In this document: piece by piece, positions 2,963-5,034 of the stretch
How the letters are laid out: every line of letters starts with the position of its first letter
How positions within the stretch are numbered: position 1 is the first letter of the stretch
DNA from: Escherichia phage LF82-1
Length of the DNA: 64,000 bases
Direction: 5' to 3' (one strand)
Sequence record: PV648359
The notes under the pieces: model-generated
The model's input: the letters and a program-made list of their open reading frames with translations, nothing else
Database searches by the model: none
What the model was told of the DNA's origin: nothing
Position numbers and translations under genes: made by a program

Positions 2963-3364
2963 TTATAGATTTGGTTTATATGATTTAAATGTTTCGAATT
3001 CGCCTTTATTCATAAGAGCTTTGAATTCGTCAGGACGCATAGCTTTGTCGTCGATAATCCAATCATATACTGGTTTATGTGTTAGCAAATTATGGTACTT
3101 CAAACCAATGTTTTCCAAGTTCTGAATCAGACTTGGGAGAATGTCAATTGCTATACGACCAGGACCTACCGACTTCATACCACGGGCAGTGTAAAGCGTT
3201 ATGGTATGCCCTGCATCATACAGAGCATTAATGGCAGACACCATTTCGACGTCTGGTTTGAAGTTCACGTAATCACGATTGTTATTCCACTCTGTTATAC
3301 AATCATCGACATCAAAACAAAGATTAAGCATGTTTTCTACACGGTGCATTAGATTCGTTCCCAT
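2963..3364 (-). CDS. HAD-like small phosphatase (core domain only)
   Basis: 133 aa; motif I-like FDVDDCIT, motif II ITLYTAR, motif IV WIIDDK; 16-nt overlap with upstream gene. Confidence 0.5.
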   Translation of the reverse strand: MGTNLMHRVENMLNLCFDVDDCITEWNNNRDYVNFKPDVEMVSAINALYDAGHTITLYTARGMKSVGPGRIAIDILPSLIQNLENIGLKYHNLLTHKPVYDWIIDDKAMRPDEFKALMNKGEFETFKSYKPNL

Positions 3365-5034
3365 TGATGAGTGATATCGCCACCGATTGGACGATAAGAA
3401 ACACCAGTTTCTTTATCAGTTAGTACCCATTTACCAGGATTTTTTGTAATCAGAGTAGCCGTTACAGGTTCTGCTACGTCATAACTAATAGAGCCGTCTT
3501 GAAGTACACGGCCCATGTTACGTAATTGCTTAGTCAGAAGTTCCATACCTTTATAATATGCGGCTACCGCTTTAAGTGGATTATTCTTGAAATAACCACC
3601 TAATGCAATCCAGATAATTGCCACCGCCAAATGATGATACTCGTTAAACGAACTCATCTTTCCATATTTGTAAATTAATGGATTGATGTTAATAGTCACA
3701 TTACAAGTTGTTTCATCAATAGTAAACTGTCCCCAGGTCGGATTAGCATTGAATTCATCATAACCTGAAACAGCATAAAGCACTTTAGCTTCATCATACA
3801 ATTTTGGCCCGTAAATCTTGGTTTCGCCAAAATATCCACGAGGGTCGATAAACTTGACTTCGCCGTTATCAGTAATCATAGTATTACTGAAGTTCGGGTC
3901 ACCATGAATAACAGAGTACTGTCCCTGAGAACGATTATGATAACGAATAAGGTGTTCTAAAGCTTGTTTCAGCATTGGCTTCAGACGTCCAATCTTAGTG
4001 TAGTTCACATGTGTGATTTTACCAAATGAATCAATCAATGGTTGAATACTTTCACAACGATCAATAACTTTCGTATAGAATTCTTTAGTGAAATCACGAC
4101 GAACAGTTTCAGGACTTACAAAATACGTGTCTGTGCTGAATTTCAGTGCATCTAAAATTGCATCAACAATTTGTGGACGAGCAAGACTTGATTTGGATTT
4201 AATATATTCAAATGCCGGCTTACCTTTAATGCGTTCCATTTCAAAGTTATTTTCATTAACAGAAACTAACTGAGGAACTGAATCTGATTTCACTTTCAAA
4301 TACCACGAAATCTCATCTTTCTGAAGAGCTCGTCCCTGTTCGGTTAATGCGAATTTAGTTACAGTTTCTTCACCAATTTCAACTGCATTAAAACTACGAT
4401 TAAGTTCACGAACTTCATGAGCTTTTTCAAGTTTAGGCATATCACCTAAATCAATTAGATTCATAAGCTCTGATTTATTGAATGCGCCGCTGTAAAGGAA
4501 TTCTACGAAATCACGTCCTTTGCAGTATTCATGAATTTCCTCATCGGTAGAACCCATATAGAATTCCCAGTCTTTGAACTGATAAATTCCTACAACATTA
4601 CCACCTGTTGAACCTACGTTAGTGATATTTTCACCGTCGAAATTATACCGACATTCGTCACCCTTAACATAGATTGCGTTAACATTCCAAGACCATGAAC
4701 CAAAATCAGGAATAATATCACACCAGTTAACAATTACATTATGGCCATCTAAATCTTTGTGTAATTTAGCAAGAGCATAAGCAGAACCATACGCTTCATC
4801 AACTGTACGAATAGTCACATTGAACCCTTCTTGCTCACAATAAGCTCGAACAGTTTCAGCAAATTTTGAATGAACTACTACAATAATTTCATCTGCGCCA
4901 AGGTCAGAATAAATTGTATACAAATTGCTCAGAATAGTGTCTTGTTTATAGTTAACAAGCACCTTAGGAATATGATGCGTTATTGGATACAAACGAGTTG
5001 CCAGTCCAGCACCAAGAATAACAGCTTTTTTCAT
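3349..5034 (-). CDS. Bifunctional sugar-1-phosphate nucleotidyltransferase (N-terminal, LicC/RmlA-like) and kinase (C-terminal, APH/choline-kinase fold)
   Basis: 561 aa; N-terminal MKKAVILGAGLATRLYPIT (GxGxR NTase signature); C-terminal Brenner motif VIHGDPNFSN and metal-binding IDPRGYFG. Confidence 0.75.
   Translation of the reverse strand: MKKAVILGAGLATRLYPITHHIPKVLVNYKQDTILSNLYTIYSDLGADEIIVVVHSKFAETVRAYCEQEGFNVTIRTVDEAYGSAYALAKLHKDLDGHNVIVNWCDIIPDFGSWSWNVNAIYVKGDECRYNFDGENITNVGSTGGNVVGIYQFKDWEFYMGSTDEEIHEYCKGRDFVEFLYSGAFNKSELMNLIDLGDMPKLEKAHEVRELNRSFNAVEIGEETVTKFALTEQGRALQKDEISWYLKVKSDSVPQLVSVNENNFEMERIKGKPAFEYIKSKSSLARPQIVDAILDALKFSTDTYFVSPETVRRDFTKEFYTKVIDRCESIQPLIDSFGKITHVNYTKIGRLKPMLKQALEHLIRYHNRSQGQYSVIHGDPNFSNTMITDNGEVKFIDPRGYFGETKIYGPKLYDEAKVLYAVSGYDEFNANPTWGQFTIDETTCNVTININPLIYKYGKMSSFNEYHHLAVAIIWIALGGYFKNNPLKAVAAYYKGMELLTKQLRNMGRVLQDGSISYDVAEPVTATLITKNPGKWVLTDKETGVSYRPIGGDITHQWERI

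Follow-up and report, generated by a model that had tools for sequence, protein, structure and literature searches.

A bifunctional nucleotidyltransferase-kinase of an RB69-like phage and its probable role in UDP-D-arabinofuranose synthesis for DNA modification

Background

In the DNA of the T-even phage RB69, the base that bears beta-D-Araf-alpha-D-Araf (Araf, arabinofuranose) is 5-hydroxycytosine and not hydroxymethylcytosine (Lee et al. 2026, PMC13326640). Arabinose on every cytosine of phage DNA blocks many restriction enzymes and alters sensitivity to defence systems (PMC13326640), and the donor supplied in arabinosyltransferase assays on RB69 DNA was uridine diphosphate (UDP)-arabinofuranose (PMC13326640, methods). 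Two RB69 proteins, ORF53_52c and the SIS protein ORF055c, were proposed in 2018 as UDP-arabinose synthesis enzymes (Thomas et al., PMC6024577). For the related phage HY126, PMC13326640 summarises He et al. (Nat Chem Biol 2026) as reporting that AfhE is both a D-arabinose-5-phosphate 1-kinase and a UDP-D-arabinofuranose pyrophosphorylase. According to section 27 of that paper, again citing He et al. 2026, the AfhE kinase converts D-arabinose-5-phosphate to arabinofuranose-1,5-bisphosphate, from which the Mg-dependent HAD phosphatase AfhF strips the 5-phosphate. The route so summarised is reported to run de novo from ribulose-5-phosphate rather than by salvage. Here we describe a gene of the same kind in a 64,000-nucleotide stretch of Escherichia phage LF82-1 (record PV648359; hereafter the window), which encodes an N-terminal nucleotidyltransferase and a C-terminal APH/choline-kinase-like kinase in a single polypeptide.

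Comparable routes exist for other sugars. ADP-heptose (GmhA, HldE and GmhB) and GDP-heptose (HddA with HddC) are each made by an isomerase, an anomeric kinase, a HAD phosphatase and a nucleotidyltransferase. The phage pathway follows the same logic, in which a SIS isomerase supplies an omega-phosphorylated sugar, the anomeric carbon is phosphorylated, the distal phosphate is removed and the sugar-1-phosphate is activated. HldE is likewise a bifunctional kinase/transferase, and the phage N-terminal domain closely resembles HddC in structure. However, the HldE kinase is ribokinase-like, its transferase is cytidylyltransferase-like and its domains stand in the opposite order, while HddA is a GHMP kinase. 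The heptose routes thus differ from the phage route in using unrelated kinase and transferase folds and in building a heptose rather than a pentose. With RmlA/LicC-like and APH-like folds in the phage protein, its likeness to the HldE type lies in pathway logic only.

AmgK-MurU, which serves N-acetylmuramic acid (MurNAc), Bacteroides FKP and the Leishmania arabino/fucokinase-pyrophosphorylase likewise pair an anomeric sugar kinase with a sugar-1-phosphate nucleotidyltransferase. These enzymes act in salvage, on free sugars, and the kinases of FKP and of the Leishmania enzyme are of the GHMP type. The phage enzyme is unlike them in that its reported substrate is phosphorylated at C5 and a phosphatase step falls between its two activities. 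An initial annotation of the window, made by reading its letters, had compared the fused protein with the FKP and Leishmania enzymes. The kinase-pyrophosphorylase comparison stands, but the phage kinase is of another type, with an APH/choline-kinase fold instead of a GHMP-family domain acting on a free sugar. The same annotation described the domain order as LicA/LicC in reverse, which is apt at the level of fold; LicC and LicA are both among the structural matches. The LicC and LicA proteins of Streptococcus pneumoniae, and LicC-LicA fusions, use choline and CTP without a phosphatase step in between, and their identity to the phage protein is about 20% or less.

Domain architecture and catalytic residues

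The gene is an uninterrupted open reading frame (ORF) of 561 codons on the minus strand, exactly where the initial annotation had placed it. It begins with ATG and is preceded by a GAGGA Shine-Dalgarno sequence 7 nucleotides (nt) upstream. Coordinates of this and other features are collected in the table below.

The signature of a sugar-1-phosphate nucleotidyltransferase noted earlier at the N-terminus proves to be real. Residues 8-24 read GAGLATRLYPITHHIPK, and the Pfam NTP_transferase profile (PF00483) aligns to residues 3-99 (E=8.5e-10; 39.1 bits, cutoff 21.2). The G-x-G-x-x-T-R...P-K signature, the Pfam score and the fold all place the domain among the nucleotidyltransferases of the RmlA/GalU/MurU/LicC fold. 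Its best match by sequence in the PDB is the CTP:phosphocholine cytidylyltransferase LicC (1jyk, E=2e-5). LicC is also the top structural match, with MurU among the top matches and HddC, RmlA and GMPPB also close.

The second domain has the bilobal kinase fold, with an ATP-binding Lys, an HxDxxxxN motif and a downstream metal-binding Asp. Its top structural matches in the fold search are choline kinases, LicA among them. The Brenner motif is HGDPNFSN (residues 377-384), followed by IDPRG at residues 396-400 (D397-G400 at window 3835-3846). The initial annotation was right about this motif, although it lies about two-thirds of the way along the protein and not near the C-terminus.

An AlphaFold2 model built from a 50-sequence alignment has two confidently modelled domains (predicted local distance difference test score, pLDDT, 94.1; predicted template modelling score, pTM, 0.90), in agreement with Foldseek. 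Across 50 homologs, down to 27% identity, the transferase residues G10, R14, K24, D106, D195, D198 and K201 are invariant, as are the kinase residues K227, H377, D379, N384 and D397. Also invariant are R213, R326, K417 and K488, candidates for a 5-phosphate pocket. The protein therefore has two domains, and the catalytic residues of both are intact. Sequence and fold searches of the PDB found no structural match to the full-length protein.

Beyond the kinase domain lies a tail of about 50 residues that forms short beta strands and is modelled with lower confidence (pLDDT 76-88). The tail is present in all 22 of the T4-like (Straboviridae) homologs that were aligned, and it is absent from jumbo-phage and giant-virus-like homologs, which end near residue 511. 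The tail may serve for docking.

A single polypeptide

The RB69 reference record, NC_004928, splits the gene into ORF053c and ORF052c (28094-29780; locus L007, 3595-5281). Aligned to the window gene, this record shows 98% nucleotide identity, with 34 substitutions and, at codon 219, an extra C. RB69 ORF53_52c (gp52:53) is the same gene, with its frame broken in the reference and intact in the window. When the RB69 region was re-sequenced, the extra C was found to be a sequencing error, and expression yielded one protein with a mass near 64 kDa (Thomas et al. 2018, PMC6024577). Among phage records, the transferase-kinase is one uninterrupted match in 363 of 373. Because nearly all records are continuous and the RB69 split traces to an erroneous base, the fusion is genuine, and its initial reading as one gene rather than two was correct.

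Orthologs and existing annotation

The window protein is identical to frameshift-corrected RB69 ORF53_52c at 556 of 561 positions. It is identical at 542 of 561 (96.6%) to XAN60479.1, a 562-residue protein of HY126 (PP658200.1) that has the same two-domain architecture and the same flanking genes in the same order. By its position and architecture, we take XAN60479.1 to be the protein named AfhE in the literature. The gene was thus flagged in 2018, and a near-identical ortholog was reported as biochemically characterised in 2026.

In the BASEL phage Bas46, the record for the ortholog reads 'putative enzyme involved in UDP-arabinose biosynthesis'. Public records as a whole have not kept pace. 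Most still give 'hypothetical protein' or 'GlmU' for the transferase-kinase, 'mannose-1-phosphate guanyltransferase' also occurs, and PHROG 4098 is listed as 'unknown function'. The adjacent HAD phosphatase is widely mislabelled 'phosphoheptose isomerase'. The practical value of the present assignment lies in these outdated annotations of both genes and in the RB69 reference genome, which is still frameshifted. A transposon-mutagenesis preprint that mentions Bas46 contains nothing on the essentiality of these genes.

A proposed pathway to UDP-D-arabinofuranose

The gene very probably encodes the central bifunctional enzyme of a phage UDP-D-arabinofuranose pathway, which supplies the donor for arabinosylating 5-hydroxycytosine in phage DNA. 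Architecture, folds, catalytic residues, orthology and gene context come from this analysis, while substrates, step order and the use of UDP come from the HY126 literature as summarised in PMC13326640. The SIS isomerase of the cluster, together with host KdsD/GutQ, would convert ribulose-5-phosphate to D-arabinose-5-phosphate. The C-terminal choline-kinase/APH-like domain would then use ATP to phosphorylate the anomeric C1, yielding arabinofuranose-1,5-bisphosphate. The HAD phosphatase, encoded by the downstream and translationally overlapping gene, would take off the 5-phosphate. This would allow the N-terminal LicC/MurU/RmlA-like domain to convert arabinofuranose-1-phosphate and UTP into UDP-Araf and pyrophosphate. 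Finally, GT-B arabinosyltransferases would move Araf onto 5-hydroxycytosine in DNA.

The order of these steps may account for the ring form of the sugar. With C5 phosphorylated while C1 is being phosphorylated, we infer that only the furanose ring can close. Since a start from the 5-phosphate would lock the furanose in this way, no mutase should be needed to obtain a furanosyl donor. The phage would gain UDP-D-arabinofuranose, a donor that E. coli does not make. A donor absent from the host had been anticipated from the letters of the window, and it corresponds to the nucleoside diphosphate (NDP)-arabinose of the published work (PMC6024577, PMC13326640).

Gene context supports the pathway. The transferase-kinase clusters with a KdsD-type isomerase, a HAD phosphatase, a D169N 5-hydroxy-deoxycytidine monophosphate (5-hydroxy-dCMP) synthase and a DNA arabinosyltransferase, all on one strand. 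A core set consisting of the transferase-kinase, the overlapping HAD phosphatase, the thymidylate-synthase homolog and a glycosyltransferase recurs in Acinetobacter phage DLP1, in the E. coli Dhakavirus IME08 and in a 350-kb jumbo-phage contig. In addition, HAD, KdsD-type SIS, nucleotidyltransferase and kinase domains occur as Rosetta-stone fusions (see below), which independently supports a link between the four activities.

The same context bears on the idea that the protein is a LicC-LicA type enzyme for a non-sugar alcohol, such as choline or ethanolamine, with no part in DNA modification. In its favor, the first domain finds its best structural match in LicC, and for the second the top matches are choline kinases, among them LicA. 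However, neither a choline transporter nor a phosphocholine transferase gene is present nearby. The gene is flanked instead by those for an arabinose-5-phosphate isomerase and for a sugar-phosphate phosphatase, and the DNA-modification cluster around it is conserved across phage genera. The ortholog biochemistry summarised in PMC13326640 also contradicts a non-sugar substrate, which makes this explanation scarcely credible.

Several points weigh against assigning the gene to UDP-D-arabinofuranose synthesis. Matches of the kinase domain to Pfam profiles fall under the curated cutoffs (APH, PF01636, 14.4 bits versus 23.2; Fructosamin_kin, 17.1 versus 22.4; EcKL, 16.2 versus 22). Sequence profiles alone place the domain in none of these families, and its fold was therefore examined. 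The window protein also differs from its HY126 counterpart by 19 substitutions and one single-residue gap, which are clustered in the N-lobe of the kinase. Of these 20 differences, 15, including the one-residue indel, fall within the 38 residues from 228 to 265 (window ~4240-4352), and none touches an invariant column. This cluster looks like a recombination patch and not like evenly spread drift. The activity of the window protein itself is a putative one, assigned by way of the HY126 ortholog, for which a secondary source summarising He et al. 2026 provides the substrates, the step order and the nucleotide. Furthermore, CTP is the nucleotide used by LicC, which among solved structures is nearest in sequence to the transferase domain. 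Lastly, Table 1 of PMC13326640 gives another order, with a phosphatase producing free arabinose and a kinase then producing arabinose-1-phosphate. The step order is therefore not obvious from sequence.

The order in that table amounts to a salvage-type alternative, in which the kinase phosphorylates C1 of free D-arabinose and the transferase activates the resulting arabinose-1-phosphate. The free sugar could be external or could be arabinose-5-phosphate dephosphorylated by the HAD enzyme. Gene content is equally compatible with this order, and the RB69 proteins are so labelled in Table 1 of PMC13326640. Structural neighbours of the kinase domain, namely glucosamine kinase (6hwj), maltokinase (5jy7) and fructosamine-3-kinase, also act on unphosphorylated sugars or sugar amines. 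However, in the HY126 experiments summarised in section 27 of PMC13326640, the kinase acts on arabinose-5-phosphate and the phosphatase on the 1,5-bisphosphate. The DNA carries the sugar as a furanose, a form that would be minor in free arabinose and that, as reasoned above, a 5-phosphate would fix. Moreover, an arabinose-5-phosphate isomerase is found fused to or clustered with the transferase-kinase, which points to entry from the pentose phosphate pathway. Together these observations make a kinase acting on free arabinose improbable. The initial annotation had favored just such a salvage route, and the reported AfhE substrate speaks against it. It had also held that a purified protein lacking kinase activity on free sugars would refute its interpretation, a test that would discard a broadly correct reading by mistake.

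Alternatively, the bisphosphate pathway might operate with another nucleotide, so that the transferase makes CDP-, GDP- or dTDP-arabinose. Close folds do use dTTP (RmlA) or GTP (HddC, GMPPB). AfhE is nevertheless reported, in the PMC13326640 summary, as a UDP-D-arabinose pyrophosphorylase, and the in vitro arabinosyltransferase assays mentioned above used the UDP-linked sugar. A nucleotide other than UDP is thus very unlikely, and the choice that the initial annotation had called unpredictable by eye has a reported answer. Reading nucleotide specificity directly from the transferase sequence was considered and rejected, as its nearest relatives use CTP, dTTP, UTP and GTP alike.

Distant homologs and larger fusions

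Distant homologs of the transferase-kinase, with about 29-35% identity, conserve all of the catalytic residues (loci L002, 10001-12781; L011, 10001-12679 and 1727-4144; L012, 10001-12361). Some are four-domain single polypeptides of about 900-950 residues that carry HAD, KpsF/KdsD-type SIS, nucleotidyltransferase and kinase domains in that order. Others are cupin-extended transferase-kinase variants of about 780 residues. One four-domain protein (P0084) is located in a contig with the giant-virus hallmarks Rpb2, MutS-HNH and TFIIB. Two further proteins, one in which the SIS domain was not detected (P0118) and one with a C-terminal cupin (P0106), reside in contigs of this kind, with genes for an NDP-sugar epimerase/dehydratase and glycosyltransferases next to them. 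Hallmarks in the located contigs also include RING and NADAR, and a eukaryotic transcriptome set contains one similar protein.

It is possible, though we put this forward tentatively, that giant viruses of eukaryotes carry the whole bisphosphate route to NDP-D-arabinofuranose in one protein. If so, the sugar nucleotide would presumably go into virion glycans or a DNA modification as yet unrecognised, and the transferase-kinase module would extend beyond the DNA modification of T-even phages.

The 350-kb jumbo-phage contig (L005, 5135-10997) encodes a SIS isomerase, a GT2 glycosyltransferase, a tail-less transferase-kinase of 519 residues, a HAD phosphatase and a thymidylate-synthase homolog. 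This cassette suggests that glycosylated modified pyrimidines occur well beyond T4-like phages.

The gene cluster

The window belongs to the genus Mosigvirus, whose members are RB69-like T-even phages. In megablast searches it matches Escherichia phage LF82-2 and siblings at 100% identity and more than 100 other RB69-like phages at 95-99%. Its G+C content is about 37% throughout. The transferase-kinase gene lies just 3' of the RB69-type DNA polymerase gene. From this polymerase gene, the minus-strand cassette continues with the SIS isomerase, a 47-residue membrane ORF, the transferase-kinase, the HAD phosphatase, a U32 protein, a 79-residue ORF, the 5-hydroxy-dCMP synthase and the arabinosyltransferase. 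Gene order is the same in the window, HY126, Bas46 and RB69.

Table. Positions of the transferase-kinase, its domains and neighboring genes in the window
Feature	Position	Strand	Basis
AfhE / RB69 gp52:53 (ORF53_52c) ortholog, 561-residue bifunctional protein	3349..5034	-	ORF; identity to HY126 and RB69
N-terminal nucleotidyltransferase domain, residues ~1-205	4420..5034	-	signature G8-K24 at 4963-5013
APH/choline-kinase-like kinase domain, residues ~206-511	3502..4419	-	Brenner motif at 3883-3906
C-terminal tail, residues 512-561	3352..3501	-	alignment analysis
SIS-domain arabinose-5-phosphate isomerase, KpsF/GutQ/KdsD type, without CBS domains	5216..5851	-	TIGR00393 E=2e-32; KdsD E=7e-31
47-codon ORF, strongly hydrophobic peptide	5076-5219	-	ORF reading
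Small HAD-family phosphatase (AfhF / RB69 gp51 ortholog)	2963..3364	-	TIGR01689 capsule biosynthesis phosphatase E=1.9e-13
Peptidase-U32-family protein (RB69 gp50)	1746..2906	-	Pfam PF01136 E=7e-11
Thymidylate-synthase homolog, 5-hydroxy-dCMP synthase (RB69 gp48 type)	751..1467	-	D169N + N177D signature
DNA arabinosyltransferase 1 homolog (RB69 gp46:47 / bas46_0141), N-terminal 250 codons	1..751	-	match to Bas46 300-residue protein

The isomerase, which is predicted to interconvert ribulose-5-phosphate and arabinose-5-phosphate, falls in PHROG 5670 ('arabinose 5-phosphate isomerase') and is identical to its HY126 counterpart at 208 of 211 positions. The HAD phosphatase matches that of HY126 at 127 of 128 positions. 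In HY126 and RB69, its start is annotated at the ATG that corresponds to window 3349-3347. With this start, the TAA stop of the kinase gene and the phosphatase ATG share a base (TAATG).

The thymidylate-synthase homolog, when aligned to thymidylate synthase, carries N in place of D169 and D in place of N177. The D169N change is the signature of 5-hydroxy-dCMP synthases (Lee et al. 2026, PMC13326640). The protein is identical at 234 of 238 positions both to the HY126 protein and to PDB entries 9iqc/9ir2. It is the only member of the cluster for which near-identical PDB entries exist (9iqc/9ir2/9iqu). Entries 9iqc/9ir2 are presumably the HY126 crystal structures mentioned in the literature. The arabinosyltransferase gene, assigned as arabinosyltransferase 1 from Table 1 of PMC13326640, continues past the left edge of the window.

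A U32-family protein and a small membrane ORF

The U32-family protein, encoded between the phosphatase and 5-hydroxy-dCMP synthase genes, ends with the Cys cluster CANEICGTTCTYC and is identical to its HY126 counterpart at all 386 positions. Its conservation far exceeds that of the transferase-kinase: it is at least 80% identical in every one of the 221 phage records that have it, whereas the transferase-kinase drops to 43% in the same Klebsiella phages. A sequence search against the PDB gave no match for this protein, and a literature search found no paper joining U32, 5-hydroxycytosine and phage. Its only description in PMC13326640 is a table label, 'sugar or heterocycle reductase'.

The gene is absent from Acinetobacter phage DLP1 and Dhakavirus IME08, and the ten host names that occur most often for the protein do not include Acinetobacter. 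The U32 family includes the O2-independent hydroxylases RlhA, TrhP and UbiU/UbiV. The phage member could provide an oxygen-independent route to 5-hydroxycytosine where a flavin/O2-dependent enzyme cannot work. The idea that the gene tracks host anaerobiosis was rejected because the correlation is imperfect: the gene is missing from DLP1 but also from IME08, a phage of E. coli.

The 47-codon ORF between the isomerase and transferase-kinase genes encodes the peptide MKAITIGLLLLMLVMTIYWSLTAPVMIPTLIIGWIMIGLQAKYGCFN and has an ATG start that overlaps the isomerase stop (ATGA). The corresponding proteins of Bas46 and HY126 are listed as 'hypothetical protein', and RB69 has a 111-nt ORF (RB69ORF054c) in the same interval.

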